Assembly (NCBI GenBank): GCA_965219685.1
Contig: CBDCOH010000002.1
Location: 2,784,001 to 2,848,000, forward strand
Source of the DNA: Candidatus Spongiisociaceae bacterium
Lineage (GTDB): Bacteria; Actinomycetota; Acidimicrobiia; Spongiisociales; Spongiisociaceae
Reading direction: 5' to 3'
Length of the DNA: 64,000 nucleotides
Below are positions 17,688 to 58,382 of the stretch, piece by piece. A program made the translations under genes and the position numbers. Each line of letters begins with the position of its first letter. Within the stretch, counting starts at the first letter, position 1. The notes under the pieces are model-generated. The model searched no databases. It worked only from the letters and a program-made list of their open reading frames with translations, and had not been told where the DNA came from.

Positions 17688-19097
17688 ATGACGAGCACGC
17701 CACGAACCCTGTTCCAGAAGGTTTGGGACGCCCATGTTGCCCACGAGGCGCCGGGCGAGCCCTCCCTGCTGTACATCGACCTGCATCTGGTCCACGAGGT
17801 GACCAGCCCCCAGGCATTCGACGGGCTGCGGATGGCCGGGAGGACGGTCAGACGACCGGACCTGACCCTGGCGACCATCGACCACGGGGTCCCTACCGCC
17901 AACCGGAGCCTCGGTATCCGCGATCCGCTCTCGAAGAAACAGATCGATGCGCTCATAGAGAACTGCGAGGAGTACGGGATAACGCTCTACGGCCTGGGCG
18001 ATCCCCGCCAGGGAATCGTCCACATCATCGGCCCCGAGCAGGGCCTCACCCAGCCGGGAATGACGATCGTCTGCGGTGACTCACATACCGCCACCCACGG
18101 CGCCTTCGGTGCTCTGGCTTTCGGGATCGGAACGTCTGAGGTCGAGCACGTGCTGGCCACCCAGACCCTCCCGCAGATCAAGCCGAAGGCGATGGCCGTG
18201 ACGGTGGAGGGGGACCTGCCGAGAGGCGTCACGGCCAAGGACATCATCCTGGCGATCATCGCCCGGATCGGCGTAGCCGGCGGCGTCGGACATGTCATCG
18301 AGTACCGGGGCTCGACCATCCGGTCGCTGTCGATGGCGGGCCGGATGACCATCTGCAACATGTCGATCGAAGGAGGCGCACGCGCCGGGATGGTGGCTCC
18401 CGACGACACGACCTACTCCTACATCGAAGGCCGGCCGTACGCTCCCAAGGATTGGGAGGAGGCCTTGGACCACTGGCGGACCCTCCCGGGCGACCCGGGG
18501 GCGACCTTCGACGCCGAGGTGGAGATCGACGCCGGCTCCCTCGAACCCCACGTCTCGTGGGGGACCAATCCCGCCCAGACAGCGCCGGTGAGCGCCCGTG
18601 TGCCCCACCCCGACGACTACGACGACCCGCTCGACCAGGAAGGATGCCGGCGCGCGCTCGAGTACATGGACCTCAGCGCAGGGATTCCGATCACCGACAT
18701 CCGTCTCGACCGGGTGTTCCTCGGGTCGTGTACAAACGCCCGGATCGAGGACCTCCGGGCCGCGGCGGCCGTTGTGGAGGGCCGCAGGGTGGCCGAGCGG
18801 GTGGAGGCGATGGTGGTGCCGGGATCGGGCCTCGTGAAGCTACAAGCCGAGGAGGAAGGCCTCGACCGCGTTTTCAAGGGAGCCGGTTTCGAATGGCGGG
18901 ACGCCGGCTGCTCCATGTGCCTGGGGATGAACGACGACATCCTTGCGCCCGGCCAGCGGTGCGCGTCGACGTCGAACCGCAACTTCGAGGGGAGGCAGGG
19001 GCGCGGAGGTCGCACCCATCTGGTCAGTCCCGAGATGGCTGCCGCAGCGGCGGTCACCGGCCACTTCGTCGACGTCCGTTCGTGGGACCGCCGATGA
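17688..19097 (+). CDS. leuC: 3-isopropylmalate dehydratase large subunit
   Basis: [27 protein letters not shown] and [12 protein letters not shown] motifs. Confidence 0.97.
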
Positions 19098-19699
19098 AGC
19101 CGGTCAGCACCATCAGCGGGTCCATGGCGCCCCTTCCTCGCAGCAACGTCGACACGGACCAGATCATGCCGAAGCAGTTCCTCAAGCGGGTCGAGCGCAG
19201 CGGCTACGGGCAGTTCCTCTTCTACGACTGGGCCAGGACTGCCGGCGGTGACCTCGACCCTGACTTCGTCCTCAACCGGCCCGGGCACCGCGACGCGAAG
19301 GTGCTGGTGAGCGGGCCCAACTTCGGTTCCGGGTCATCGCGCGAGCACGCTCCCTGGGGCATCCAGGACTGGGGTTTCGAAGCGGTGATAGCACCATCGT
19401 TCGCCGACATCTTCTACAACAACTGCACCAAGATCGGCCTACTCCCCGTCAGGCTCCCCGAGCGCGATGTGAACGAGTTGATAGCGCTCGCCACCACCGA
19501 CCCGGCGGCGGTGGTGACCGTCGACCTCGCCGCGCAGACCGTCGAGACCGGGGAGCTCCGCTCGAGTTTCGAGATCGACCCCTTCACGAAGAACCGCCTG
19601 CTCGAGGGCTTGGACGACATCGGCCTGACGCTCCGGAACACCGGCGCGATAGAGTCCTTCGAGGCCCTCCGTCCTGCTCGCCTCCCGAGTCTCAGCTGA
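19094..19699 (+). CDS. leuD: 3-isopropylmalate dehydratase small subunit
   Basis: NVDTDQI and [13 protein letters not shown] motifs. Confidence 0.96.
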
Positions 19700-19705
19700 G
19701 TCGGC

Positions 19706-20608
19706 ATGGACCTGCTGGCGGTCATCTCCTACCCACCCATACCGATCTTCGACGTCGGCCCGCTTCGCCTGTCGCTGCACGGGGTCTTCGCAGGGGTCGG
19801 GTTCATGACCGGCGCCTACTACGGCCTCAAGATGTTCCACGCCCGCGGGTTCGACGCCGCGCGCTTCCAGTCCGCTCTCACTTGGGCTCTCGTCGGAGCG
19901 CTCCTCGGTGCTCGCTGGTTGACGCTCCCCGCGTACTGGGTGGAGAACGGATTCGACCTGAGCGAGATGATCAACATCGGGGGCAACTACTCCATCATGG
20001 GGGGTTTCGCGGGCGGCATCGGCCTTGGAGTGTTCCGAGCCTACCGACTGGGCCTCAGGATCTGGCCCACCCTCGACGTGACCGCCTTCGGCCTAGCGAT
20101 CGGCACGATCGTCGGGCGGATCGGCGATCTGGCCATAGTCGAGCATCTGGGCGGGCCCACCGACTTCTTCCTAGGCTACGGGATCCGGCCGGGATACGAC
20201 GTGGCGCCACAGCACAACCGCCTGGAATGCACGGTGGCGGAGGTGGGCGAGTATTGCGGCATCTACCACCATGCAGCCTTCTACGACATGTTGGGCGCCA
20301 TCGTGCTCTTCGGGGTGGTGTACTGGCTCTACGAGCGCTCCCGGCTGACACTTCGCTACGGGCAGCTTTTCGCCGTCTGGGTGGCCTGGTACGGCTTCCA
20401 GCGCCTGTTCATAGACTTCACCCGCCTCGCGCTAGATGTCGACGGTGACAGGACCCTCGGCGCGCTCACGTGGAGCCAGTGGAGCGGCCTGGCTGCGGGG
20501 ATCGCGGGCGTCGCCGGACTCCTGTGGCTGGGAAGGCGGAACCGCGCGGTCAGCCCGGAGAACGACCGGCTCTACGGCGCCGTCGCGACCGCGCCTGAGC
20601 CGGATTGA
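19706..20608 (+). CDS. lgt: Prolipoprotein diacylglyceryl transferase
   Basis: LLGARW, GRIGD, H..AFYD and YGFQRLFIDFTR motifs; multi-TM. Confidence 0.8.
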   Translation: MDLLAVISYPPIPIFDVGPLRLSLHGVFAGVGFMTGAYYGLKMFHARGFDAARFQSALTWALVGALLGARWLTLPAYWVENGFDLSEMINIGGNYSIMGGFAGGIGLGVFRAYRLGLRIWPTLDVTAFGLAIGTIVGRIGDLAIVEHLGGPTDFFLGYGIRPGYDVAPQHNRLECTVAEVGEYCGIYHHAAFYDMLGAIVLFGVVYWLYERSRLTLRYGQLFAVWVAWYGFQRLFIDFTRLALDVDGDRTLGALTWSQWSGLAAGIAGVAGLLWLGRRNRAVSPENDRLYGAVATAPEPD

Positions 20609-20612
20609 CGAT

Positions 20613-20647
20613 TAGTTCCTAGTCGGTAGTCTATAGTCTCTAGTTGG
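20613..20647 (+). repeat. Degenerate heptamer tandem (TAGTNNN)x5 just after the lgt stop
   Basis: TAGTTCC TAGTCGG TAGTCTA TAGTCTC TAGTTGG. Confidence 0.85.
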
Positions 20648-20875
20648 TCATCGCTCGTTAACGTTAAATTGAATCCAGTTACCATTGTCATAGCACTGTT
20701 TGGGTCTCGCGTTGCACCGCGGGTGGCTCTTCACGAGATGGCAGACCCAGTCCCGAGTCCAGGAACAGGGACACACTAGTTTACAGATGTGTTGTACAGC
20801 GTTGTGTAGCGGTCGTAGTGTACGGTCTCTTCTGGTCAGATCCCTTGGAACTAGGGGAGTGGTCGGCCGGCGGGG

Positions 20876-20904
20876 TTGTCCGTCTCGCTCGCGCCGGTTA
20901 GCCT
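20876..20904 (+). promoter_or_regulatory. Sigma-A-like promoter driving a leaderless leader transcript
   Basis: TTGTCC-17 nt-TAGCCT, with the leader GTG 7 nt downstream of the -10. Confidence 0.6.
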
Positions 20905-20911
20905 TGCCGGC

Positions 20912-20983
20912 GTGAGACCGACGTCTGTGTATACGTATTTCGCCTTTACCGGGCCCGGCGCCCGGGCCCGGCACTGCACGTAG
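20912..20983 (+). CDS. Putative Tyr/Phe attenuator leader peptide MRPTSVYTYFAFTGPGARARHCT
   Basis: YTYFAF codon cluster, followed by alternative hairpins and a terminator upstream of the chorismate mutase fusion gene. Confidence 0.72.
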   Translation: MRPTSVYTYFAFTGPGARARHCT

Positions 20984-21004
20984 CACCCACACAACGTCGC
21001 AAGC

Positions 21005-21038
21005 AAAAGGCCCGGAGCAGCCGCTCCGGGCGTTTTTC
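21005..21038 (+). terminator. Intrinsic terminator (attenuator)
   Basis: GCCCGGAGC-AGCC-GCTCCGGGC followed by GTTTTT, 30 nt before the downstream start codon. Confidence 0.85.
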
Positions 21039-21067
21039 GTTCACGGGGCGGCCCCACCAGAGGAGCG

Positions 21068-22123
21068 ATGATGGAACGGAGAGCAGTACGCAACGGATCA
21101 GAAACCGACACCGTCGTCAACGTCGGACTGACGAGGTTCGGTCACGATCCCTTCCCTGTCATCGCCGGCCCCCGAGCGGTGGAGTCGGAGTCACAGATAA
21201 TGCAGGTGGCCACTGCCGTGGCCGAGGCGGGCGCGTCCTTGCTCCGCGGAGGCGTGTTCGAGTCGAGCCCGTCCCCGTACGCCTTTCCCGGTCTGGGAGA
21301 ACCAGGCTTGAAGCTGCTCAAGAAGGCCGGGGAGGAGGTCGGCCTACCCACCGTCACCAAGGCGCTCGAACCCAAGGACGTCAGCATGGTCGCCGCCCAC
21401 GTCGACATGATCTACGTGGATCCCGGATCGATGCAGAACTTCGAACTCCTGCGCGTCATCGGCCGGTCCGGCAAACCGGTCCTCCTCGAACGGGGCGGTT
21501 CCGCCACGGTCGACGAATGGCTGTGGGCTGCGGAGTACGTGCTCGCCGAGGGCAACAACCAGGTGGTCCTCTGCGAAGCCGGAATCCGGACCTTCGAGAA
21601 ATCCACGAGAGCGACGCTCGACCTGAGTGCCATTCCCGTTCTCAAGGAGAAGAGTCATCTCCCGGTGATCGTGGCCCCGTCCGCCGCGGTCGGGTCACCG
21701 GGGCGGATCCAACCGCTCGCACTGGCCGCCCAGGGCGTGGGGGCCGACGGGATCATGATCGAGGTACATCCGGATCCGAGCACATCCCGGACCTTTGTCT
21801 CGCATCACATCACGATCGAGGCGTTCAGCAGGCTGATGGACGCGCTCGGCGTCAACCGGATCCGCATGAACATAGACATGATCGACCGCGATCTGGTACG
21901 CCTGCTTGCCAGGCGGCACCACCTGGCCATGGAAGTCGGGCGGATCAAAGCGGAGCGGGGAATGCCCGTCCAGATTCCCGAACGCGAGGAGGAGCTCCTG
22001 GGGATCATCCGCGAGGAGGCGGAAGTGGTGGGGTTGGACCCCGACCAGGTCGAGAGGATCTTCATCCTGATACTCGAGCAGTCCCGCAACGCGCAGCACC
22101 GGAAGCGAGCCGGGAGTTGGTAG
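21068..22123 (+). CDS. Degenerate type I-beta DAHP-synthase-like domain fused to a C-terminal AroQ chorismate mutase
   Basis: DAHPS scaffold motifs (IAGP, RGG, MQNFELL, GIRTFE, GADGIMIEVHP) with the catalytic residues substituted. C-terminal IRMNIDMIDRDLVRLLARR...K...PERE...QSRNAQ. Confidence 0.88.
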   Translation: MMERRAVRNGSETDTVVNVGLTRFGHDPFPVIAGPRAVESESQIMQVATAVAEAGASLLRGGVFESSPSPYAFPGLGEPGLKLLKKAGEEVGLPTVTKALEPKDVSMVAAHVDMIYVDPGSMQNFELLRVIGRSGKPVLLERGGSATVDEWLWAAEYVLAEGNNQVVLCEAGIRTFEKSTRATLDLSAIPVLKEKSHLPVIVAPSAAVGSPGRIQPLALAAQGVGADGIMIEVHPDPSTSRTFVSHHITIEAFSRLMDALGVNRIRMNIDMIDRDLVRLLARRHHLAMEVGRIKAERGMPVQIPEREEELLGIIREEAEVVGLDPDQVERIFILILEQSRNAQHRKRAGSW

Positions 22124-22135
22124 CACAGTTGAGCT

Positions 22136-22149
22136 AAACCGACCGGTTT
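22136..22149. promoter_or_regulatory. Palindrome AAACCG-AC-CGGTTT upstream of the TRAP SBP gene (possible TetR-type operator)
   Basis: Perfect palindrome in the intergenic region. Confidence 0.35.
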
Positions 22150-22285
22150 TCTACGTAGAGCAGGGGAAATAGCGTATCAATTTGCCGGTTTCGGCCCGCG
22201 TACGGTCCGGCCGTTGGATATTCTTCCTCTCCCCGGCCGACTGGCCGAGGAGCAATACTCGGGACCGCCAAGGAGAGGAGGAGGC

Positions 22286-23518
22286 GTGGCACGGGACAAA
22301 TCGGGACCTTCGCTGGAGGAGACTCTGGAGACGAAGGTAGACCGCAGGGACTTCCTCAAGAAAGCAGGAATGACAGTTGCAGCCGGCGGGTTGCTCGCCG
22401 CCGTAGCAGCATGTGGCGACGACGAGCCTGCGCCTGAGACAACCGCGGCACCCGCCGCCGACGACACCACTACCACCGCCGCCGAAGCGGTCGAAGTGGT
22501 GATGAGCGAGGGTGGGCCGGAGATCGAATGGGAGATGGGCACGAGCTGGCCGCTCTCCCTGGACACGATCTACGGAGGCGCCGCGGACTTCGCCGAGCGC
22601 GTCTCGGCGATGACCGGCGGCCGGTTCAACATCACGCCCCGAGCGGCGGGCGAGCTCGTACCGGGACTTGAGGTTCTGCAGAACGTCCAGCAGAACGCCA
22701 TCCCGGCCGGCCATACCGCGTCGTACTACTACGTGGGCCTGAGCCCCGCCACGGCGTTCAACACCGCTCTGCCCTTCGGGTTCACCTACCGGCAGCAGAA
22801 CGCGTGGATGTACGAGGGCGGCGGCCTGCAACTGATGCAGGACTTCTACGCGGACCGCTTCGGCGTGATCAACTTCCCGGCCGGCAATACCGGAGTCCAG
22901 ATGGGCGGTTGGTTCAACAAGGAGATCAACTCCAAGGCGGACTTGGAGGGACTACGCATGCGGATCCCCGGCCTGGGAGGCAAGGTTATGGAGAAGCTCG
23001 GCGTCACCGTCCAGGTGCTACCAGGCGGTGAGATCTTCCAGGCGCTCCAGACCGGCGCCATCGACGCCACCGAGTGGGTCGGCCCGTACGACGACACGAC
23101 CATGGGGTTCCACGACGTGTCCACCTATTACTACTACCCCGGGTGGTGGGAGCCGGGCCCCGAGCTCGACGTGTTCATCCCGCTGGCGGAGTGGAACGAG
23201 CTGCCCGAGGAGTACCGGGTGATTGTCGAAGCCGCGGCCTACGGCGCCAACGCCACCATGATGGCGCGCTACGACGCCAAGAACCCGGCCGCTCTGCAGA
23301 CGATCCTCGAGTCGGACATCGAACTCCGGCCGTTCCCGGATGACGTGATGCAGGCTTCTCAGGATGCCGCATTCGAACTCTTCGACGAGACAGCCGCGGA
23401 TGACAGTGACTTCGCGTCGATCTTCGCCGAGTGGAAGAGCTTCCGCGACGGGATCACGCGATGGCATGGCCTTGCGGAGACAGCCATGGTCAGTTGGACG
23501 GGTCGCCACACGGCCTGA
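22286..23518 (+). CDS. dctP: TRAP transporter substrate-binding protein (TakP-like, Tat lipoprotein)
   Basis: DRRDFLK Tat motif, lipobox [22 protein letters not shown] and [10 protein letters not shown] motifs. Confidence 0.92.
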
Positions 23519-23535
23519 ATCCACAAGAACCAAGC

Positions 23536-23561
23536 GAGGGGCGGGCCCAGGCCCGCCCCTC
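23536..23561. terminator. GC-rich hairpin after dctP
   Basis: GAGGGGCGGGC-CCAG-GCCCGCCCCTC. Confidence 0.7.
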
Positions 23562-23563
23562 TC

Positions 23564-23580
23564 TGGTGAATGGTGAATGG
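23564..23580 (+). repeat. Short TGGTGAA heptamer tandem (about 2.5 units)
   Basis: TGGTGAA TGGTGAA TGG, the same unit as at 14771 and 62049. Confidence 0.75.
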
Positions 23581-23664
23581 TGGTGCGGCTACCACGCACC
23601 GCTCATGGTCACATGGATCTATCTCGGTAATCGAATACCGTTGAGAATTCTACTGGCTACCGGC

Positions 23665-25029
23665 CTAGCCCACGACGCTCGGTAACCAGGTGACCGTGGC
23701 CGGGAAGATCATCACCAGGACCAACGCCACACCCTGAAGGGCCATGAACGGCAGGGCGCCCCGGTGGATGTCAATCGTCTTTACCTCCGGCGGTTTCACG
23801 CTCTGGAGGTAGAAGAGCGAGAAGCCCACCGGCGGCGAGATGAAGGCCATGTTCAGGTTGATCGCGATCATGACCGTGAACCAGATCATCAGAGCCGGGA
23901 GAGTGTCGAACGGGGTAACCCCCGTCTCGAACAGCACGCGAACCGCCGGAACGAAGATGGGCATGGCGATGAACGTAATCTCGATGAACTCCAGGTTGAT
24001 GCCCAGCAGGAACACCGCGATGTTGGCGATGATCACGAAACCCCAGAACCCGCCGGGAAGGCCCGTGAGGATCTCCTGGGCGAAGCGTTGCCCGCCCAAT
24101 TGGTCGAAGATCAACTGGAAGAACGTGGAGCAGAACAGGATCATCAGGACCAGACCGGTTATGTTCGCTGCGGACCGGCTGGCTCCGGCGATGACCCGCC
24201 ACCTCAAATTCCGGTTGGCTGCTGCCAGCGCCATGGCGGCAACCGCGCCGACGGCACCCGCTTCGGTGGGAGTGGCTATCCCTCTGAAGATCGTGCCGAG
24301 CACGGCCAGGATCAGCAGGATGATCGGAACCACCGCGATCAGGAGTTCCTTGATGAGATCCACTCCGCGGATGGTGCGAGCCTCGTCGGGGAGAGCGGGA
24401 GCCACTCCTTCTTTGGTGTAAGCCCGGTACAGGCAGTAGACACCGTAGATTCCGGCCAGCATGGTTCCGGGGACCATGGCTCCCAGGAACAGGTCGCCAA
24501 CCGAGACGCCCACCACCTGCGCTAGGAGGATCAGCACCAGGGAGGGCGGGAGAAGCTGGGCCAGGGTGCCCGACGCCGTGATCAGCCCGGTGGCGAGCCG
24601 GTGGTCGTACCCGTAGCGGACCATGGTCGGCAGGGAGAGCAGGCCCATCACGATCACTGTGGCTGCGACGACGCCGGTTGCCGCCGCCAGCATGGCGCCC
24701 ACGACCACGACGGTGAGGCCGAGCCCGCCCTTCAGGCGGCCGAGAGCCATCCCGATGGTCGTCAACATACGCTCCGCGAGCCCGGACTTCTCGAGGATCG
24801 CCCCCATGAACACGAAGAACGGAACGGCCAGCAAAGTGAAGTTGTCAACCGCCTTGAACCAGCGGCTGAAGAGGATGATCAGGCGGTTGAAGTCGAACTC
24901 CCCGAGCAGGATCCCGACGGCGCCGAACACTATGGCGGTACCGGCGAACGAGAAGGCCACGGGATACCCGACGAGCAGCAGCACCAGGAAGATGGCGAAC
25001 ATGATGATGGCTAGCCACTCGACACCCAT
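23665..25029 (-). CDS. dctM: TRAP transporter large permease
   Basis: [31 protein letters not shown] and [12 protein letters not shown] motifs. Confidence 0.93.
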
Positions 25030-47007: not shown

Positions 47008-48019
47008 ACTCCTCACCGTCGAAGGATTGAGCAAGACCTTCGCCGGCGCGGGGACGTTCTGGGCGAAGCGCGGCACGATCGGCGCGGTGAGGGACGTCTC
47101 GCTCACCCTCTCCCGCGGCGAAGTCCTGGCGATCGTCGGTGAGAGCGGGAGCGGGAAGACCACCCTCGGCCTGTGCGTGATGCGCCTTATCAGGCCGTCC
47201 TCCGGTGTCGTTCGTTTCGAAGGGGTCAACACGCTCCGGCTGCGCGGTAACGCGCTGCGAGACTTCCGGCGCAACGCCCAGATCGTGTTCCAGAACCCCC
47301 AAGCCTCGCTCAACCCGCGCATGCGCGTCGCTTCGATCATCGGTGAGCCGGCGAAGTTCCACGACGGTCTCCGACACCAGCCGCTGAAGGACCGGGTTGC
47401 GGAGTTGATGCACTCCGTCGGCCTCGACGAGGCCGAGGCACGGAAGTACCCCCATGAACTCAGCGGTGGGCAGCAACAACGTGTCTCGATCGCACGCGCT
47501 CTCGCATCGAGGCCACGGCTGCTGGTCCTGGACGAGCCGACATCCGCACTCGATGCTTCCGTGCAGGGGCAGATCATCGGGCTTCTCAACGAGTTGCGGG
47601 AGCGTCACCGTCTCGGCTACCTGCTGATCTCGCACGACCTCCGTCTGGTGCGCGGGAACTCTGACCGGACGGCCGTCATGTACCAGGGCACGCTCACCGA
47701 GGTAGGCCCGACCGAGGAGATGTTCCGCCGGCCTATGCATCCGTACATGCGCCTGCTCCGGCACACGATGCCCTCGGTAGCCGGAGCAGCACTGCGGCGG
47801 ATCGCGACCGGGCACCTCGTCAGGACTGCAGAACCGGTGGACACCGGTTGTGTCTTCCGACGCCGCTGCCCGACGGCCAGGCCGCGATGCGCCGACGCGC
47901 AGATGCTCGACGCGACACAAGCACACTCGGCAGCATGTTGGCGGGCCGGGACACCTGACTTCGAAGAAGAATGGTGCCGGGTCATGAATCCGGCTTCCGC
48001 CGTCATCGGTTCCGATTGA
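47000..48019 (+). CDS. Opp/Dpp ABC ATP-binding protein F
   Basis: GESGSGKT, YPHELSGGQQQR and DEPTSALD motifs. Confidence 0.92.
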   Translation: MAELLTVEGLSKTFAGAGTFWAKRGTIGAVRDVSLTLSRGEVLAIVGESGSGKTTLGLCVMRLIRPSSGVVRFEGVNTLRLRGNALRDFRRNAQIVFQNPQASLNPRMRVASIIGEPAKFHDGLRHQPLKDRVAELMHSVGLDEAEARKYPHELSGGQQQRVSIARALASRPRLLVLDEPTSALDASVQGQIIGLLNELRERHRLGYLLISHDLRLVRGNSDRTAVMYQGTLTEVGPTEEMFRRPMHPYMRLLRHTMPSVAGAALRRIATGHLVRTAEPVDTGCVFRRRCPTARPRCADAQMLDATQAHSAACWRAGTPDFEEEWCRVMNPASAVIGSD

Positions 48020-48071
48020 CATAGAAGAACATATAGAAGGACACGAAGGGACACGGAAGGAGGAAGAACCC

Positions 48072-48428
48072 GTGGACGGCTTGGCAATCGTTACGCCCAT
48101 TGACACCGATGACTACGAGGATATGCCGCTGGAGGGCCACGTCGTGTCAGGCGACCCGCAGGCCAAGGTGCACTGGATCCGTAGGGAACGCTCGGGGCTC
48201 GGCATGTTGCAAACGGGCCTGTTCATCGCCCAGCCCTCCGTCTGTCGTTGGGTGTTCGAGGGCGACGAAACCATCTACGTCATCGAGGGCGAGGTTCGCA
48301 TCGATTTCGTCGAGTCCGGTGAGAGCGTCGAACTCGTTGCAGGCGACATCGGATCGTTCCCGAAGGGGGTGGATGCGATCTGGACGTTCAAGAAGCCGTT
48401 CAAGGAATTCTTCGTGCTCTGCGGGTGA
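48072..48428 (+). CDS. Cupin (DUF861/EutQ-like) protein
   Basis: ETIYVIEGEV...GDIGSFPKG...W. Confidence 0.82.
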   Translation: MDGLAIVTPIDTDDYEDMPLEGHVVSGDPQAKVHWIRRERSGLGMLQTGLFIAQPSVCRWVFEGDETIYVIEGEVRIDFVESGESVELVAGDIGSFPKGVDAIWTFKKPFKEFFVLCG

Positions 48429-48437
48429 GGACAAGAG

Positions 48438-48473
48438 CCCGTCCTCGAAGGTCCCGCGGCCTTCGAGGACGGG
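48438..48473. terminator. Long intergenic hairpin (terminator or mRNA stabiliser)
   Basis: CCCGTCCTCGAAGG...CCTTCGAGGACGGG. Confidence 0.55.
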
Positions 48474-48494
48474 AAGCGACAGAGGAGAGATGCC

Positions 48495-49568
48495 ATGCAA
48501 GGACAGGTTATGACAGTGCTCGGTCCGGTGTCGCCCGAAGAGCTCGGACCCACGGTGACGCACGAACACCTACTGGTCGATCTCTCGTGTTACTGGCAAC
48601 CGCCGGATGACCCGGACCGTCGAGCCCTGGCCGAGGCGCCCTTCGAGATGAGCATGATCGGGATAGTCAAGCGGGATCCGTTTTTTTCGCTCGACAACAA
48701 CACGCTCGACGATGTCACCGCGGCGACCGAAGAAGCGAGGGAGTTCAAGAACCTGGGCGGGGGCACGATCGTCGACGTAACACCGGCCGACATAGGTCGC
48801 AACCCGCTCGCCCTCCGGACCGTCGCCCGATCGGCGGGGCTCAACATAGTTGCCGGGACCGGCCATTACGTCCACATCGCGCATCCGCCCGGCCTGGAGA
48901 ACGAACCGACCGGAGAGATCGCAGAGCGAATGATCATCGAACTGACCGAAGGCATCGACGGCACCGGGATACGAGCAGGCGTGATCGGCGAGATAGGCAC
49001 TAGCCACCCGCTCCACCCGCGCGAAGAGAAGGTGCTGCGGGCTGCTGCCCGCGCCCAGCAGGGGACCGGCTACCCGATATCGGTCCACGTCGCCCCTTCG
49101 GCGCGCCAAGGCCACGACGTGCTGGAAATTCTTGAGAACGAGGGCGCCGATCTCGGGCGGGTTGTCATGGGACATCTCGACCTCACCTTGGGCCACCTCG
49201 ACGCCGAATTCGACGAGATCGTTGGATACCACTCCTCGCTCGGCGAGCGTGGGTGCTACATCCAGTACGACACTTGCGGTGTCGAACTCTACGTGCCGTC
49301 CGGCGGCCTCGGTCCACCATTCTGGCTTCCTTCCGACCTGACCCGGCTAAAGGCCATCGCCCGACTGTTGGAGGCGGGCCACGGCGATCGACTCCTGCTC
49401 AGCCAAGACGTCTGCACCAAAAAGGATCTGGTCCGCTACGGAGGCTTCGGCTACGGGCACATCCTGCGGTACTTCGTCCACAACCTCAAGGAGATAGGCG
49501 TCACACGGTCGGAGAGCGACCGAATGCTCATTGACAACCCCAAACGTATGCTCGCGCGGCAGGGGTGA
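48495..49568 (+). CDS. Phosphotriesterase-homology (PHP) amidohydrolase
   Basis: THEHL, GVIGEIG (Glu bridging ligand), SVH, GHLD and LSQDVC motifs. Confidence 0.9.
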   Translation: MQGQVMTVLGPVSPEELGPTVTHEHLLVDLSCYWQPPDDPDRRALAEAPFEMSMIGIVKRDPFFSLDNNTLDDVTAATEEAREFKNLGGGTIVDVTPADIGRNPLALRTVARSAGLNIVAGTGHYVHIAHPPGLENEPTGEIAERMIIELTEGIDGTGIRAGVIGEIGTSHPLHPREEKVLRAAARAQQGTGYPISVHVAPSARQGHDVLEILENEGADLGRVVMGHLDLTLGHLDAEFDEIVGYHSSLGERGCYIQYDTCGVELYVPSGGLGPPFWLPSDLTRLKAIARLLEAGHGDRLLLSQDVCTKKDLVRYGGFGYGHILRYFVHNLKEIGVTRSESDRMLIDNPKRMLARQG

Positions 49569-50209
49569 CGACCCGGGCGATGGTGACCCGCCGTTCTTGG
49601 AGTCCAGTGAGCCGGCGTTGCGGTGATGCTGCAGGCTGGTCGTGAGGTTGCGGGATTTGGGTCTTAACCGGCTCGGGGTTTGCCGGAGAGTTCTTAACTC
49701 AACAATTCCAACCTAGCAAGGCAGGGGCACGGAGAGTCGGCGTACGCCAGTAAGGCCTACATGAAGTATCCAACACCCATGAACCAGACATTTATTCGGT
49801 ATTACCGGCGTATGGACACCCAGACCCTGGATGACATTTACCAGGTCCTCTCCGCAGGCAGGCGGGACTGGGCATAGAGAGCACGGCGCTGGCCTTAGGT
49901 TCGTCTGGGCGTTCTCTCTATGTTACCACTTCGTTTACTACTTGTTCTCTGGTATCTCGTGGTTCTTCCTGGTACTACATGAAGCTATCGGATTACCCTG
50001 AAATGCCCTGTAACCTGGGAGAATAGAGGCCGTGTGGCAGCATCCGGCACCTAGTGGACCTTTGCAGGACGGCAGTCGTCCGCCTCCGCTAGCAACAAGT
50101 TCGAACACGTTCCGTGCCCGGTGGTAGAGGGCAAAGCTCCCCATCCCGACTCCGGTCCACGGAACAGCAAGGCCAACCGTTGGCATGACTCGCAGAGACT
50201 CTCCACTTG

Positions 50210-51247
50210 CTACAACGGGGCCGGGGCGACTCCGAGTTGTGCACGGGCTTCATCGAGCACCTGCAACACACTGACAGACATCGACAGGGGATGCAGTGGC
50301 GACTGCGTTAGACCATCCGAGACATGGCGGGCTGCCCAGACCGCTTGCCTGCACAATCCATCCTCGGCTGTGACAAGGCCCGATCGATCGACGTACTCCG
50401 CAACAGGCACGTTCCTATCGTCATACAGCGTCAACCCCCCGGGAGCAGGATGGCGCGAAGGAATCAAGACCCGGCCATCTGAACCGCCGACGCTGGCCTC
50501 CCCAGAGCCAAATGTGTAAATACTGCAAGTTGCAACGGCTTGTTGACCACTCTCGTTGGTCAAGACAGTTACGGATTGACCATCAACACCTGTTGGAGTT
50601 ACCTCCCCTACGCACTGAACGTGGATCGGCGAGCCCATAACTAAGATGGCGAACCAAACTGAATAGACTCCTATATCCAGTAGAGCTCCGCCTCCAAGTG
50701 CCGGATCATGTATTCGGTTTGTAGGATCTAAAGGAAAGACCGCCCCCAGATCCGCTGTAACCAGTTGTACCTTCCCGAGTTCACCGTCCTGTAGCAGTCT
50801 GTCCAAGACGCTGGTCCTTGGATGAAAGCGTGAATGCATGGCTTCCATCGCGAACCTATTGTGAACTCTTGCTGCATCGCCAATGGCCTGTGCCTCTAAG
50901 GCAGAAGTAGCTAGTGGTTTCTCAACAAGGACATGTTTACCCGCCTCGAGTGAAGCCACGGCCATCCTTTTGTGATGGCTATGCGGGGACGCGATATAGA
51001 CGATGTCAACATCGCTATCGGCGAGCACCGCCTCATAAGAACCGTAAGCACGAGGAATGGAAAACCGTTGGCCAAAGCGTTCAGCCCTCTCGCGCGATCG
51101 AGAGCCAACTGCAGTCACGTCTTGATCGGTGTGACGCTTCAAAGACCGTACGAACTTATTGGCTATTACTCCTGGTGCTAGGATCCCCCAACGCAGGACC
51201 GGGCCACCACGAAGAGGGACAGACTCCGCCTCATGTAACGACTTCAT
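50210..51247 (-). CDS. Gfo/Idh/MocA oxidoreductase
   Basis: RWGILAPGVIA, HVLVEKP and GGGALLDIGVY motifs. Confidence 0.92.
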   Translation of the reverse strand: MKSLHEAESVPLRGGPVLRWGILAPGVIANKFVRSLKRHTDQDVTAVGSRSRERAERFGQRFSIPRAYGSYEAVLADSDVDIVYIASPHSHHKRMAVASLEAGKHVLVEKPLATSALEAQAIGDAARVHNRFAMEAMHSRFHPRTSVLDRLLQDGELGKVQLVTADLGAVFPLDPTNRIHDPALGGGALLDIGVYSVWFAILVMGSPIHVQCVGEVTPTGVDGQSVTVLTNESGQQAVATCSIYTFGSGEASVGGSDGRVLIPSRHPAPGGLTLYDDRNVPVAEYVDRSGLVTAEDGLCRQAVWAARHVSDGLTQSPLHPLSMSVSVLQVLDEARAQLGVAPAPL

Positions 51248-51459
51248 GTCACGGCCCTCATCCGACTACCCGACTCCCGAGCCACGGAGACCGTGACCGA
51301 TCACGTGTCCGCGGCCGGGGCCCGATGCTCTAACGCAAACTCCGCGCAGCTTGGGCCGGGCAAGCGACTCCAAGTAGCCCTTCGTCTCGAACCACCTGAT
51401 CGCATACCGGATCGTTCCCCGTGGGCGAACTGTCAATCCGCGCATGTCGTCCCCAAGTC

Positions 51460-52269
51460 TCACAGCAGGTCGCTCAGGTCATCTTCGAGATTCGTGAAGT
51501 CAATATGGCCTTTCTGCTGGCACACCGCGATGTTGAGGTACTCCAACGGGGCGTCGGTGTGGTTGATGATCCCGTGCGAACCTCCGATTCGATTGGGGAT
51601 ACAGTCACCTTTGGTCACGTCGCCGACCTCGCCATCGACTTTCATCCGCCCCCGACCGCCGATGATCACGTAGCACTCCTGGATGGTGTCATGACGGTGA
51701 TAACCGACCGAGGTGCCGGGAGGCATGAAGGCGTGGTCGACGAAACCCCAATTCGTGGTGAAGACATCGCTGTCGAAGAGGCGCCGGGCGCGGATCTCCC
51801 CTAAGCCTACGTGAGCGCGGCGCGGCGTGAGCAAGGTCGGATCGAGACGTTGGACCAACTCCAACTCACTGTCGTCGGACTCCCGGCCCGTGAGATCATC
51901 GTCCAGCGGCACAGCATCGAACGGTCCATCCTGTGGAGCCACACCGATCCCGACGAAGCTGGTCCAGTGATCGGTGTGATTGAAGATGCCGTGGGCGTCG
52001 CCGGCCCGGCACAGCGCCACCGAGCGCGACTCGACCACACCGAAGTGCTCGTTGTGTGCCACCGACAGCGGACCGTCGATCACCACCAGGCACTCTTCGG
52101 ACTGTTCGTGGAGATGGAGGCCAAGGCTGTGGCCGGGCCCGAGGCGGCCCGCCTTGATGAACGCGAACGACGTCTCGAAGTCCGATCGGTCCAGCATCGT
52201 TATCTCGCCGGCGCCTCCCTTCTCCCGCCGAGCGGTGAACGGACCGGTTTCGTAGTTACGGATTCTCAT
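51460..52269 (-). CDS. Bicupin protein
   Basis: Two cupin repeats (HLHEQSEE...HGIFN and HRHDTIQE...HGIIN). Confidence 0.85.
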   Translation of the reverse strand: MRIRNYETGPFTARREKGGAGEITMLDRSDFETSFAFIKAGRLGPGHSLGLHLHEQSEECLVVIDGPLSVAHNEHFGVVESRSVALCRAGDAHGIFNHTDHWTSFVGIGVAPQDGPFDAVPLDDDLTGRESDDSELELVQRLDPTLLTPRRAHVGLGEIRARRLFDSDVFTTNWGFVDHAFMPPGTSVGYHRHDTIQECYVIIGGRGRMKVDGEVGDVTKGDCIPNRIGGSHGIINHTDAPLEYLNIAVCQQKGHIDFTNLEDDLSDLL

Positions 52270-52448
52270 GATCTGTCCTTATGCGAGGGTGGCTCGAGCC
52301 CGTCGTCGCCCCTCGCGGTGTCGAGCTGCTAAGCCACTGCTAGCGAAAACAGCAGTTTCACGCCGGGGCGGCGATCTGGAGGAGTCCCCCCCCTCTCGAC
52401 CATGCATCCTAGGGCCGAGGTACGGCACCCGCTCAACCACACTTCTCC

Positions 52449-52937
52449 CTAGTGTGGGAGCCGTCCCGGCGGCGGCTGCAGCAGTTCCAAGACAATCTGG
52501 TCCGGATCATGGAAGTAGACCGCGTACCCGCCCTCATTCACGCCCGCCATGATGCGGTTCGGCTCTGAGAAGAAGGAGACGCCCGCCGCACTCAGCCGGT
52601 CGTACCACCCGTGAATGTCGTCGACCGCCACCGCTAGGTGGGCGGCGCCAGGATTGGCAATGCCGATATCCCCTCGCTGTCCCAACGGTCTCACGTACTG
52701 CACGAGCTCGAGGTCGTGCGTGGAGAGCTGACGAGGCCGGCCGGGCACCGCCAACTGGGCAACGACGATCCGGGCGTCCGGGTAGCCGACCAGGCTCCGC
52801 GTGTACGGGTTGTCCTGAACCTGACGATGGACCAACTCGAACGACAGCAACCCCACGTAGAACTCGACAGAGCGATCCATGTCGGACACGGTGAAGCTGA
52901 AATGCCAGACACCATGGACACCTCCGACGGTTGCCAT
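52449..52937 (-). CDS. VOC/glyoxalase family protein
   Basis: HFSFTVSD, LELVQY, HLAVAVDDI and DPDQIVLEL motifs. Confidence 0.9.
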   Translation of the reverse strand: MATVGGVHGVWHFSFTVSDMDRSVEFYVGLLSFELVHRQVQDNPYTRSLVGYPDARIVVAQLAVPGRPRQLSTHDLELVQYVRPLGQRGDIGIANPGAAHLAVAVDDIHGWYDRLSAAGVSFFSEPNRIMAGVNEGGYAVYFHDPDQIVLELLQPPPGRLPH

Positions 52938-53153
52938 TCAGTCAATCCCTTCTTCCTGCAAGCGGAGGGGGGCCCTCCGTGCTGAACCCGAGCTCCCCGT
53001 ATTCTCGGAAAGCCCTCGTACTCTCCTGCCACACTAGGATATGTTCTCTGCCGTCGCCCACCTTTGCAGCTCTGGTATCCACTTCGCCAACCTCGCCGAC
53101 AAAACGGCTTCCGACCGGGTTGGGCGACCTCCTGACGATCCGCCAACCCGCAT

Positions 53154-54206
53154 TCACGACCCCAGAAGGCTTGGTCTGTTGCAAGCAGTCTCCAGGTGAC
53201 CACCCACCCTGTCGGTAGTGGAAGGGTTAGGCGGACTCAACATTTCGAGTATCTCAACTACATGAAGGGCCACATCGGGTGCCGCACGAGCAGCCGTCCC
53301 GCGACGTATCGCATCCGCCATATCTATGACTCCGATCCCGCGCTGGTTCGAGCTATGACTAGTAGTCTCCTGCTCCACCCTGACAGGATGCCAATTGCGT
53401 TCGTCGTGCCTACGCCACCGTGCTAGGGCCGAGAACGTGTCGGGATTCGGTAGGCACAGCACACCTTCGGTACCGAACACTTGCAGAATCGGCACCTCGC
53501 TCGACGGCGTGTCACCATAGCGTAGGGTTAGTACACACAGGACATCGCCCGCAAACCTAATACTGCAGGAAGCGAAGATCGCTGACGGATCCAGTAGAGG
53601 TGTGACATAAGAGAGTCTAGAGATCCCCGACACCGCGGAGGCAGAACCAAAGAGGTTGACGAGCGCCGAAAGATAATACGGCGCCATGTTGAAGAGCGGA
53701 ATCACTCCGGTTCGGTGTCGTTCGAGTACAGGTAAGGGCCGTAGCATGGAGGCAAATCCTGAGATTGGCTTTCCGATCAGGCCCTGATCCATTGCCCGGC
53801 GACCGGCTTGGAAGCCTGGACCGAGGACGGTGTCCGGTGCACAACCTATGCTCAACCCGGCCTTCTCCGCAGCAGCCAGCAATGTGGCGCCCTCGCTTGT
53901 GGTCAATGCGAGAGGCTTCTCACTGTAGACGTGCTTTCCGGATTCAAGGATGCGAAGACTTGTCTCGTAGTGAGACGGGATAGGTGTGAGGTTGACGATA
54001 AGGTCGAGTTCCTCACAGTCAAGTATGTCCTCGCCATGGAACACCTTTGGGATATCATACGCCCGAGCCAATCGCCCAGCCGCCCGGTCATCTAGATCAC
54101 CGACGCCGATCACTCTGATCCCGGCACTAGCCGCCAGGTTCGGTAGATACTGACCGGCGACCTCTCCCGCACCGAGAATACCCACTCCCGTTGGCTGAGT
54201 CACCAC
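53154..54206 (-). CDS. Gfo/Idh/MocA oxidoreductase
   Basis: GILGAG, HVYSEKP and GCAPDTVLG motifs. Confidence 0.9.
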   Translation of the reverse strand: MVTQPTGVGILGAGEVAGQYLPNLAASAGIRVIGVGDLDDRAAGRLARAYDIPKVFHGEDILDCEELDLIVNLTPIPSHYETSLRILESGKHVYSEKPLALTTSEGATLLAAAEKAGLSIGCAPDTVLGPGFQAGRRAMDQGLIGKPISGFASMLRPLPVLERHRTGVIPLFNMAPYYLSALVNLFGSASAVSGISRLSYVTPLLDPSAIFASCSIRFAGDVLCVLTLRYGDTPSSEVPILQVFGTEGVLCLPNPDTFSALARWRRHDERNWHPVRVEQETTSHSSNQRGIGVIDMADAIRRGTAARAAPDVALHVVEILEMLSPPNPSTTDRVGGHLETACNRPSLLGS

Positions 54207-54399
54207 GATGACTCTCTCCTTCCCGGACACCCGGTTACCGCCGTGTGGAGGGGTTGCAACCGGGCATACCCTCTGCTGTCGGGAAAAAACTGCCCTCCGT
54301 GGACGCATCCGAATACGGGATGGCACTGACAACGTGGTCGGAACAGGTCGTCTCCCGTTCGGTTTCGGATGAAAGAGTTGATGATCCACATGACTCGTC

Positions 54400-55251
54400 T
54401 CACTTCATGGCTCCGATTCGCAGGCCCTCCGTGAGCTTTCTCTCAGTAAACGTATACAAGACGATTATGGGAGAGATCGTTAGCATGAGGGACGCGAAGA
54501 GCGCCCCATAATCGGAACCGTACTGTCCTCGGAATTGTGTCAGCCCTACCGGTAATGTTCGGCTGTCGGGACTCAGCAGGAGAACCTGTCCCAAGCCGAG
54601 TTCGTTCCAGATGAAGATGACTTGGACAAGGCCCACTGCGAGCACCCCTCCCCACGAAAGCGGCAGTACGATGCGTTGGAAGGCTTTGAACTCGCTTGCT
54701 CCATCGATGTGCGCCGCCTCGATGAGGTCCAGCGGAAAGGAGGAGAAGTACGCACGCATCATCACGGCCGCGAAAGGAATAAGACGGGCAGCGTACATCA
54801 CACCAAGAGCTAACGGGTTACTCAGGACACCGAGACGGTCTGACAGCACGAAGAGTGGTATCCAGGTGACGATGAACGGCAGGGTGATGAGAAGGACGAA
54901 GTAACGATTCAGTAACCCACCGAACTTGGTACGGCTTCTGGCGATTGCATAGCCGGCAAACACGCCGGCTCCTACTCCGAGAACGACCCCTACACTGGTT
55001 GCGATCACGCTGTTGCGTGCGAACAGAATCAGTGGCTCTCCAAGGTTCGTGCCATCCCAGGCCCTATGGTAGTTCTCGAACAGCAGTCTTGATGGGAGGT
55101 TCAGCGGTTCGGCGATTATCTCGGTTTGTGACTTGAACGAGGAGAACAGACTTCCTACGACCGGAACGATCGTCACCAACGTCCATAGCAATAGGCAAAA
55201 AACCCCGAAGCCTTTGAGAATGCTGGCTGGTATGCTCCGTAGCGGCCACAT
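54400..55251 (-). CDS. Carbohydrate ABC permease (MalG-like)
   Basis: EAAHIDGAS, WNE and TLPVGL motifs. Confidence 0.9.
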   Translation of the reverse strand: MWPLRSIPASILKGFGVFCLLLWTLVTIVPVVGSLFSSFKSQTEIIAEPLNLPSRLLFENYHRAWDGTNLGEPLILFARNSVIATSVGVVLGVGAGVFAGYAIARSRTKFGGLLNRYFVLLITLPFIVTWIPLFVLSDRLGVLSNPLALGVMYAARLIPFAAVMMRAYFSSFPLDLIEAAHIDGASEFKAFQRIVLPLSWGGVLAVGLVQVIFIWNELGLGQVLLLSPDSRTLPVGLTQFRGQYGSDYGALFASLMLTISPIIVLYTFTERKLTEGLRIGAMK

Positions 55252-55262
55252 CGTGATCGGTA

Positions 55263-56189
55263 TTACCCCGCCCGTTCGAGGCGTTTGGTCCGAATTATGG
55301 TGAGATACGCCATCGATAGTCCAGCTATCACCAGGCTCGTGACAATCGCCTGGGCTGTTGCATAGCCAAACCTCCGATTGACGAAGGCCTCGCGCCATAC
55401 GAAGGTTGCTGCGACTTCTGACAAGCGTCCCGGTCCACCCCGTGTCATTACGAATACCTGATCGAACACCCGGAAGCCAAACATGAACTGGATGAGGGTA
55501 ATAGTTGCGATGACATCTCGGATATGGGGAATACTGATATGTCGGACCCGCTGCAGTACGGACACTCCATCAATGGTTGCTGCTTCATGGATGTAGCGAG
55601 GTATATCCCTTAATGCTGCGATCAGAATGACCATCGGAAACCCGGCAAACTGGAGAACACTGACGAGAATGATCGTGAGGTTAACCGTGGCAGGATCACC
55701 AAGCCAGGGTCGGGAAAGGGACGGATGTATCCGTGCAAGAAGGTCATTGATGCCTCCGAAATTGCCGTCAAGAAAGAATGCCCACACAAGGCTGGTGAAG
55801 ACGATCGGCAGCAATACCGGAAGGAATATCAGGAATTTGAACACGGACGCGCCTCGGATCCTTCGGTCGATAGCCAAGGCGATAGCGCCACCGACTCCGA
55901 CCGTTCCGATCGTCATACCAATCGAATAGACCACTGTGTTCCGGATCGCCAATCTGGCGACTGGGTCACGTACAAGGTCGGAGTAGTTGTCAAGTCCGAT
56001 AAAGACGCCCGGACCGGCGCCAGTCCACTCAAGCAATGAGATTCGTGCCGAGTCTAGGAATGGATACAGGAGGAGGGTAGCTGACAGGGCGACTGCCGGT
56101 AGGGCGAAGAGAGCCCAGACGATGAAACGTCGGATACCTCCACCGGGTGGAGGTATCCGACTACCTTTCTGAGAAGTCGACCTGGTCAA
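55263..56189 (-). CDS. Carbohydrate ABC permease (MalF-like)
   Basis: GLDNY, EAATIDG and FDQVFVMTRGGP motifs. Confidence 0.9.
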   Translation of the reverse strand: MTRSTSQKGSRIPPPGGGIRRFIVWALFALPAVALSATLLLYPFLDSARISLLEWTGAGPGVFIGLDNYSDLVRDPVARLAIRNTVVYSIGMTIGTVGVGGAIALAIDRRIRGASVFKFLIFLPVLLPIVFTSLVWAFFLDGNFGGINDLLARIHPSLSRPWLGDPATVNLTIILVSVLQFAGFPMVILIAALRDIPRYIHEAATIDGVSVLQRVRHISIPHIRDVIATITLIQFMFGFRVFDQVFVMTRGGPGRLSEVAATFVWREAFVNRRFGYATAQAIVTSLVIAGLSMAYLTIIRTKRLERAG

Positions 56190-56232
56190 CTAAGTTCGCG
56201 CTCTCGGCCTTCTGGCGTGAGTTGAGCGTCTC

Positions 56233-57654: not shown

Positions 57655-57968
57655 AGGCTCCTCCATGTTGTAGGACGGCACCGTTTTGAGTGTTCTGGCA
57701 CCGTGTGTCGGCATGCGACTGCATAGTGCCGACGATCTATGTGTGACGTTCACTATACAGCGTTAATACTCACTATACGGGCTGAGGCTGCAAAAAATGC
57801 GGCTGTGCGCGTTAACGTGGGCAGGTCGAATCCTCGGAGTGCAGCGATCCGCTTGGTGCGGAGTCGGCCATCGGCATCGGCCGCCCACTCGGTGGTGCCC
57901 TGTGACAGACCCGGAGGCCACTATCTCTGTGTTTGGTGGAATGGTGGATCCGGGTTCGGCGGTGACTC

Positions 57969-58382
57969 CTAGGCCGTCCTTACCGGCGGGCCGTCGTATG
58001 CCGGGTCTCTCAGGTCGGATCCCTCCCGGTAGGCGGGGCTGTTAATCACCAGGTAGGTGAGGTTGCCCTTGAACTCGTAGGGAACTCCTCTGGGTATGAG
58101 GATGAAGTCGCCGGGTCCGAATCGTTGGGGCGGATCGTCGCCGACCCGGGCGATACCGTCCCCCTCCACGATGAACATGGCGCGGTCGGTCTCCTCGCAG
58201 GTGATCTGCTGCAGCCTGCCCCAGATCTTGATGTGGGTGATGCTGAGCGAATGTGTCTGATCGGGCATCGAGAACGCCGGATCGCGCTCCGTCGATCCGA
58301 TCGCCTTCTTCATGACCAGCGTGTCCTGATCGGGCCCAATCTCGGCGATCTCCGGCACGTCTTCGAGCCTAATGACGGGCAT
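57969..58382 (-). CDS. Cupin domain protein
   Basis: FIVEGDG...PGDFILIPRGVPY...LVINSPAY. Confidence 0.8.
   Translation of the reverse strand: MPVIRLEDVPEIAEIGPDQDTLVMKKAIGSTERDPAFSMPDQTHSLSITHIKIWGRLQQITCEETDRAMFIVEGDGIARVGDDPPQRFGPGDFILIPRGVPYEFKGNLTYLVINSPAYREGSDLRDPAYDGPPVRTA

Follow-up and report, generated by a model that had tools for sequence, protein, structure and literature searches.

The closest described counterparts of the protein considered here are PniDAH7PS of Prevotella nigrescens and PgiDAH7PS-CM of Porphyromonas gingivalis, polypeptides of similar length in which a barrel of DAHP synthase (DAH7PS; DAHP being the 7-phosphate of 3-deoxy-D-arabino-heptulosonate) is followed by an AroQ chorismate mutase (CM) domain. 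Genuinely bifunctional, these enzymes have a synthase activity that has been measured and show reciprocal allostery. Their fused C-terminal CM is often the sole CM of the organism (PMC8408635), and it performs better when attached to its barrel (PMC8408635, PMC12202928): the isolated CM domain of PgiDAH7PS-CM has a Km of 207 as against 19 µM and an approximately 12-fold lower kcat/Km (PMC12202928), and in PniDAH7PS both activities are attenuated when the domains are separated (PMC8408635). Here we describe a fusion gene of the same barrel-then-CM architecture from a Candidatus Spongiisociaceae bacterium (Actinomycetota; Acidimicrobiia; assembly GCA_965219685.1), where it occupies positions 21068..22123 of the plus strand, stop codon included, of a 64,000-nucleotide stretch of contig CBDCOH010000002.1; this whole stretch is hereafter called the window. 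Unlike the Prevotella and Porphyromonas enzymes, its 351-residue product lacks most of the ligands for metal, for PEP (phosphoenolpyruvate) and for E4P (erythrose 4-phosphate), and DAHP would be supplied by a separate synthase. The evidence assembled below supports its interpretation as a long-lived pseudoenzyme derivative of a bifunctional DAH7PS-CM that serves as the CM of the cell.

Other arrangements of the same folds provide further points of comparison. In the non-covalent complexes of Mycobacterium tuberculosis and Corynebacterium glutamicum, a weak AroQ CM needs contact with a DAHP synthase barrel to be fully active (PMC8408635, PMC7762937, PMC4281200), but there the synthase is an active type II enzyme and a polypeptide of its own, and it also transmits inhibition by Phe and Tyr. 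The N-terminally CM-linked synthases of Bacillus, Listeria and Geobacillus (3nvt, 5j6f) likewise combine these folds with one half that is mainly accessory, although as a mirror image of the present case: in those enzymes a working synthase has the CM as its regulatory accessory, and most of the CM work falls to a separate AroH. A degenerate barrel carried in frame within a CM-containing protein also has a precedent, namely AroQ-PheA with an aroA I-beta ‘pseudogene’ in Shewanella oneidensis, to which the available text of Song et al. 2005 (BMC Biol 3:13) devotes one sentence and one table row (PMC1173090). The Shewanella protein differs in its order of domains (CM, prephenate dehydratase (PDT) and a C-terminal barrel) and belongs to another phylum, and the available text offers neither a selection nor a phylogeny analysis of it (PMC1173090). 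The first-pass annotation of the window, made from the letters alone, had raised the possibility that the system around the fusion is undescribed. In view of the Shewanella case the idea is not wholly new. We found no description of the present clade; the literature covered, which left most subscription journals and supplements outside, contained no paper linking DAH7PS to pseudoenzymes or inactive domains, or Acidimicrobiia to chorismate mutase.

The synthase and mutase sites

The reading frame opens with an ATG and runs exactly from 21068 to 22123. Pfam profiles assign residues 25-252 to DAHP_synth_1 (PF00793; 181.5 bits against a cut-off of 25.5) and residues 265-344 to CM_2 (PF01817; 75.8 bits against 27), the latter match spanning positions 1-80 of the 80-position profile. 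On the plus strand of the window, the type I-beta TIM barrel (approximately residues 12-260) lies at 21101..21847 and the AroQ domain at 21860..22099. Among solved structures the barrel is closest to the type I-beta DAHP synthases 1vs1 (E 1.8e-75) and then 4grs, 3nvt, 1zco, 5j6f and 1rzm, and the CM part matches 2d8d and 1ecm. An AlphaFold2 model from a 54-sequence alignment (mean pLDDT 87.0, pTM 0.73) has a complete, confidently predicted barrel and three long C-terminal helices (264-296, 304-320 and 325-350), with lower confidence only at the loops 61-70 and 171-180 and the linker 261-270. Prediction of a complex between the barrel (residues 1-258) and two copies of the CM domain (259-351) gave a score of 0.02 and a mark of 0.32, which counts as evidence in neither direction.

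An I-beta enzyme of metagenomic origin, the numbering of which coincides with that of the fusion, binds its metal through C36, H206, E232 and D243, PEP through R60, K65, R120, K141 and R171, and E4P through R67, T68 and D243 (PMC6362186). When the fusion is aligned to 1vs1, 4grs and 3nvt, the metal positions read R36, A206, E232 and F243 (one of four kept); of the PEP-binding side chains R60 alone persists, the others being replaced by E65, G120, E141 and A171 (one of five); and the E4P positions are occupied by S67, P68 and F243 (none of three). At nine scored positions (36, 65, 67, 120, 141, 171, 206, 232 and 243 in fusion numbering) the canonical CKRRKRHED has become RESGEAAEF, so that one residue in nine is kept. 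Across 169 canonical barrels, which represent many architectures, the invariance of each of these positions is 97-100%. The same alignments bear out the motif substitutions noted in the first-pass annotation, namely GPC to GPR, KPRTSPY to ESSPSPY, IGARN to VDPGS, LKRG to LERG, ERGIR to EAGIR and DPSH to APSA, as well as the absence of the Asp of the ALSD motif, where the fusion has F243. Its designation of the KPRT lysine as a Schiff-base residue was mistaken: the residue is one of the PEP ligands, and no Schiff base is used by DAHP synthase.

The AroQ catalytic set, which the annotation had regarded as preserved, is complete. All seven core residues of the E. coli CM (1ecm), R11, R28, K39, R51, E52, S84 and Q88, which we take to be its catalytic residues, have identical counterparts in R266, R283, K294, R306, E307, S339 and Q343 of the fusion; the position of E. 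coli D48 is taken by I303. From these residues we infer that the barrel would lack DAHP synthase activity and that the fused CM would be active, and the combination of a dead synthase with a working CM is very probable. Since only one of the nine scored residues remains in the synthase site, we place the protein among pseudoenzyme derivatives and outside the bifunctional DAH7PS-CM family. Automated annotation is apt to err here, as the NCBIfam equivalog models for bifunctional or genuine synthases still score the fusion above their cut-offs (NF009239, 308 against 279; TIGR01361, 292 against 268). Metabolic reconstructions of these Acidimicrobiia will consequently over-count DAHP synthases and misplace the point of regulation.

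The gene content of the source assembly (4.42 Mb in two contigs, 96.7% complete) is consistent with this assignment. Its single AroQ match (PF01817) is the fusion gene, and profile searches of the assembly for AroH (PF07736) and for the type II synthase (PF01474) returned no matches. Chorismate synthase (one match) and prephenate dehydratase (two matches) are present, and a CM is therefore needed; the fusion gene looks like the only one that the bacterium has. Two PF00793 barrels were found, that of the fusion and that of a 337-residue synthase in which an N-terminal ferredoxin-like (FL) domain (PF18152) precedes PF00793 (L001 1468..2481, minus strand). The gene for this FL-type synthase adjoins the prephenate dehydrogenase gene (tyrA) and lies 230 kb from the fusion. 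In this synthase eight of the nine scored positions carry the canonical residue, and the ninth shows a conservative Glu-to-Asp change at a metal-ligand position. The same Asp (DVHP for EVHP) occurs in the FL-type paralogue of all 22 family genomes considered below. No CM other than that of the fusion is recognisable, and DAHP must come from the FL-type gene. Thus, the separate active DAHP synthase that the annotation had postulated has a convincing candidate in this apparently intact I-beta enzyme near tyrA.

Distribution, phylogeny and selection

We searched 41 genomes, including the source: 25 of the source family and 16 others of the same order. Two of the genomes in these tallies, G028 and G039, are unpublished, and none of the conclusions depends on them. 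A full-length fusion is present in 22 of the 25 family genomes and in nine of the 16 others. Each of the 22 fusion-bearing family genomes has exactly one FL-type paralogue, with the residue pattern of its counterpart in the source genome and 45-52% identity to the fusion over the barrel, and in 20 of them the fusion CM is the sole AroQ; AroH was found in none of the 41 genomes. The first-pass annotation had called for a search for orthologues that share the losses, and the barrel is degenerate in all 22. On account of this shared state we discard both recent decay and an artefact of assembly as explanations. Nor are there close relatives with intact sites, the nearest being only about 52-54% identical and belonging to other families of the order.

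Database matches extend the pattern. The best 120, which are 57-96% identical to the fusion, all consist of a barrel and a CM, and all depart from the canonical motifs to varying degrees. The 80 best loci from species representatives among the public genomes comprise 55 full-length fusions, every one degenerate (at most six of nine residues) with an intact CM set, and 25 non-fused barrels, every one with nine of nine. The 55 fusions all come from Acidimicrobiia or Actinomycetota metagenome-assembled genomes, and several of the closest are from Candidatus Spongiisociaceae or Spongiisocius. The reading frame is open in 30 of 30 related loci. The degeneracy of the barrel is old and does not reflect recent decay.

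The order of the losses was explored with 332 pooled barrels. Among these, 166 belong to barrel-then-CM proteins, of which 151 keep at most six of the nine scored residues and 15 keep all nine, with none keeping seven or eight; of the 166 barrels of other architectures, 159 keep at least seven. In a separate tally, 161 proteins of the sample have the barrel-then-CM order of the window protein. A FastTree phylogeny (LG+gamma, 258 columns, SH-like supports), which holds no named Bacteroidota DAH7PS-CM sequences, places the window protein in a clade of 154 barrels (support 1.0), comprising three intact and 151 degenerate fusions; one degenerate fusion lies outside it. Each CM catalytic residue is retained by 147-153 of the 153 clade members compared. 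The three intact fusions, F_L030 (G030), F_L032 (G032) and P0123, which have the architecture of the Prevotella and Porphyromonas enzymes, branch off first. The next branch is F_L031, with CKRSKQHEE at the scored positions, followed by two fully degenerate sequences (from G025 and G036) and then by a group of 148 (support 0.967), nearly all of which lack the substrate arginines R67 and R120. Within the latter are subgroups with ARPANRHED, CKGGRRHE- and CVGGKRHEN, and a lineage of 69 with Arg36 (support 0.98), itself ordered from RK-GE, in which Lys65 is still present, to RE-, the group of the window protein. This nesting points to a likely stepwise loss from intact bifunctional fusions. Both G030 and G032 also carry FL-type paralogues, which indicates that the redundancy predates the decay.

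The selection data come from 22 family genomes, with maximum-likelihood (ML) omega estimated under a GY+F3X4 codon model and Nei-Gojobori (NG86) medians taken over those genome pairs in which the dS of both barrels lies between 0.05 and 1 (48 of 231). The dead barrel has an omega of 0.050 (247 codons; NG86 median 0.14), as compared with 0.073 for the fused CM domain (85 codons; 0.22), 0.028 for the barrel of the active paralogue (249 codons; 0.105) and 0.066 for the FL domain (77 codons; 0.16), all being rough as absolute values because tree lengths of 11.7-13.6 per codon bring synonymous sites near saturation. Hence the barrel is under strong purifying selection, the absence of which the first-pass annotation had named, together with close intact relatives, as telling against its reading. 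Further, 71 sites that are at least 90% invariant in the 169 canonical barrels were compared in a 68-member Arg36 subclade: 49 are unchanged, seven are fixed in a new state (C36R, E98K, G118D, N121S, K141E, D203A and A223G) and 15 are relaxed, nearly all of these being ligand positions or their neighbours. Such a pattern is the signature that would be expected of a barrel fold maintained for a non-catalytic reason. With its catalytic residues lost, its evolution constrained and its frame open throughout the related loci, the barrel can be classed, by its sequence, as a pseudoenzyme domain.

Several variants of the architecture were encountered among the relatives. Two family genomes (G008 and G016) have neither a fusion nor any PF00793 barrel, and have instead a type II synthase and a stand-alone CM; in the third family genome without a fusion (G012, 72% complete) none of the synthase or CM genes was found. 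In G036, from the same order, the fusion is degenerate, there is no second PF00793 barrel, and the only other synthase is of type II. Genes for aromatic entry and branch-point enzymes have been repeatedly swapped within the group. G021 and G022 carry, beside the fusion, an additional stand-alone CM of about 103 residues, 71-74% identical to fusion residues 248-351. This protein (L066 713..1024 in G021; L067 in G022) starts inside the last barrel helix (MFTDLMDALGVNR...) with every catalytic residue of the CM in place; it is a duplicate that derives from the fusion and lacks the barrel. The converse N-terminal position of the CM is seen in open frames of 696 residues (L068, G038) and 853 residues (L069, G027) from families of the same order, in which the CM match comes before the barrel. 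Finally, P0122 (423 residues) and P0124 (465 residues) each have two consecutive matches to the barrel profile, for example at 18-186 and 179-416, which may be partial tandem duplications or gene-call artefacts.

Barrel decay also occurs in a second, unrelated architecture. Among the 31 long CM-PDT-(ACT)-barrel fusions in the sample, five have degenerate barrels and indicate that such decay is recurrent. These (P0149, P0162, P0198, P0219 and P0235; 667-688 residues) keep two to five of the nine scored residues and are probably the class seen in Shewanella in 2005.

Retention of the degenerate barrel

We propose that the C-terminal AroQ domain would convert chorismate to prephenate for the synthesis of Phe and Tyr, and that the N-terminal barrel would no longer bind metal, PEP or E4P and so would make no DAHP, this being furnished by the separate intact FL-type I-beta synthase. 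An ancestral bifunctional DAH7PS-CM, of the kind still intact in the basal relatives, would have coexisted with a second synthase, and this redundancy would have let the fused synthase site decay step by step. The barrel itself could presumably not be discarded because the CM would depend on it for its dimeric architecture and its affinity for substrate. Such dependence of the CM half on the barrel is found in both studied C-terminally CM-linked enzymes, and for this reason we read the dead barrel as an entrenched partner. As an overall explanation, it is probable that the cell’s CM has kept its pseudoenzyme barrel as a partner in both structure and kinetics; that service to its own CM is the main reason for the retention is, by analogy with those two enzymes, our favoured answer, held with some reserve. 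The core of the first-pass annotation, that is, a dead barrel, an apparently active AroQ CM, a separate synthase and an attenuator, came through every sequence-level test that we ran.

A number of observations weigh against this interpretation. The pooled sample was drawn by similarity to the query. The root of the tree, placed on the FL paralogues, was a choice, made since the midpoint fell inside the long-branched degenerate clade, and the tree is a FastTree reconstruction with SH-like supports only. The supports of its basal nodes are low (0.18 and 0.58), and the precedence of the intact fusions is therefore likely but not secure. For this protein and for every member of the degenerate clade, the labels ‘dead’ and ‘active’ derive from the residues, and the omega values carry the roughness noted above. 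The seven sites fixed in a new state look more like a remodelled, selected pocket than like pure neglect, and they could constitute a new ligand site instead of a passive scaffold. Moreover, the barrel-less copies in G021 and G022 suggest that the CM fold may work without a barrel, which weakens the case for a strict dependence.

These observations bear on the idea, already present in the first-pass annotation, that the barrel was repurposed as a regulatory module, either through a charge-inverted pocket (R36, E65, K98, D118 and E141) or as part of a synthase-docked metabolon. Taken as a whole we regard it as rather unlikely; if true, the regulatory barrel and the Phe/Tyr attenuator described below would jointly control the aromatic branch point in a way not described before. 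The dead barrels of the unrelated CM-PDT-barrel fusions would then make this a general evolutionary consequence of joining these two enzymes. In its docking version, a covalent-adapter form of the M. tuberculosis DAH7PS-CM complex, the dead barrel would hetero-oligomerise with the active FL-type synthase and couple the entry enzyme, physically and allosterically, to the branch-point CM. The barrels of I-beta synthases normally mediate assembly into homotetramers or homodimers, and activation of a CM by a synthase has its precedent in M. tuberculosis and C. glutamicum (PMC8408635). The 49 sites that remain unchanged are mostly structural, and the I-beta paralogue accompanies the fusion in all 22 fusion-bearing family genomes. 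This co-occurrence is uninformative, however, because every cell needs a working synthase anyway, and G036, where the only other synthase is of type II, argues against a general need for an I-beta partner. PniDAH7PS has no direct barrel-barrel contact (PMC8408635). Docking is accordingly doubtful, and the hetero-oligomer is not needed for the explanation. The alternative version, in which the former active site has become an allosteric ligand pocket that tunes the CM, or a permanently ‘filled’ pocket that mimics the substrate-bound, CM-activating state, draws on the seven formerly invariant sites: the new states, with the charge changes C36R, E98K, G118D and K141E among them, arise together on one well-supported branch (0.98). 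In PniDAH7PS, occupation of the synthase site by its substrates activates the CM (PMC8408635). Yet positions 68, 120, 171 and 243 drift freely, and the distant degenerate lineages differ from one another at the scored positions, so that no single new site is conserved clade-wide; such a pocket is improbable.

Two further accounts fare worse. That the barrel is still a working DAHP synthase, or a related PEP-aldolase synthase operating through non-canonical residues, would agree with its intact, strongly conserved fold and with the scores of NF009239 and TIGR01361. It would nevertheless have to do without three of four metal ligands, four of five PEP-binding Lys or Arg residues and all three E4P residues, which have mostly given way to acidic or small ones at positions that are nearly invariant in canonical barrels, several of them varying even within the family; we consider it very improbable. 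The opposite possibility, that the barrel is a functionless, decaying remnant or domain-level pseudogene, has the authority of Song et al. 2005, who so named the analogous Shewanella domain (PMC1173090). Here the selection data already contradict it: the frame is open in every related locus, the omega of the barrel is below that of the attached CM domain, degeneracy is shared by different families and by no fewer than 55 genomes at species level, and 49 of 71 fold-defining invariant sites are kept. We find this account hardly credible.

The clade offers a natural experiment on the ‘functional inter-reliance’ of DAH7PS-CM enzymes, in which the dead half is conserved more tightly than the working half. 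The service of the barrel to the CM would be directly testable, with the intact basal orthologues as controls. It would also be a bacterial metabolic example of domain entrenchment, that is, the retention of a pseudoenzyme after redundancy, with the order of losses readable on the tree.

The leader-peptide attenuator and the surrounding genes

In E. coli, attenuators of the pheL type consist of a leader open reading frame rich in Phe or Tyr codons, alternative hairpins and a terminator ahead of an aromatic-pathway gene. The closest described case to the present one is the aroR leader of C. glutamicum, with its Phe-Tyr-Phe motif, before aroF; as in the window, a short Phe/Tyr leader frame and a terminator lie 5' of an aromatic gene there, together with alternative hairpins (PMC11802643), but the gene that would be controlled in the window is a CM fusion and not a working DAHP synthase. 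The leader frame of the window (20912..20983, plus strand) has a GTG start and 23 codons, reads ...V-Y-T-Y-F-A-F-T-G-P... with Tyr and Phe codons at 20930-20947, and lies 85-156 nucleotides 5' of the fusion start. Its end is overlapped by a GC-rich hairpin (20949..20971, plus strand), and an intrinsic terminator with a 9-bp stem followed by T5 (21010..21037, plus strand) ends 31 nucleotides before the start codon. A ribosome-binding site, GAGGAG, is found 2 nucleotides 5' of the ATG (21060..21065, plus strand), and AGAGGAG is conserved among relatives.

Comparison across loci corroborates the Phe/Tyr attenuator proposed in the first-pass annotation. In an alignment of 24 of the 30 related loci, six near-duplicates having been dropped, the consensus pairs of both the hairpin and the terminator stem are conserved in all 24, with covariation at the terminator pair 138:162 (GC in 11, AU in seven and GU in six); the terminator has a z-score of -3.9. 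Every one of the 30 loci, those of the intact fusions among them, shows the TTTACCGG hairpin and the CCCGGAGC/GCTCCGGG terminator. The leader frame and its start position are conserved by eye in all 30, and in 21 of them at least four aromatic residues fall within eight codons at the leader position. The 3' part of the hairpin, CCGGGCC (20962-20968), is a 7-nucleotide complement of GGCCCGG (21008-21014), the terminator's 5' arm. When the 5' arm of the hairpin is removed, the minimum free energy fold (-33.0) uses this pairing and the centroid (-32.7) keeps the terminator, the two being nearly isoenergetic. Expression of the fusion would be set by a ribosome that senses Phe and Tyr supply on the leader.

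A scan of 20400-21300 against Rfam gave only sub-threshold matches (best E 0.42 and 1). Of these, Thr_leader (20.1 bits against 55) and a CRISPR repeat model (19.3 against 50) were rejected, being far below their gathering scores and attributable to chance or to a generic terminator. A promoter scan of 20400-22400 found no sigma-70-like site, a result that is uninformative for this phylum. Sequencing runs listed for the source comprised four of DNA type, from one study, and none of RNA. The fusion and its leader look like a single-gene unit. Upstream (17688-20608) are leuC, leuD and lgt, and downstream (22214-25029) are TRAP transporter genes for DctP (plus strand) and DctM (minus strand), all unrelated to aromatic synthesis. 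The G+C content of the window is about 65%, and at approximately 48000-58000 it falls to only 0.55-0.61 as against about 0.65 elsewhere.

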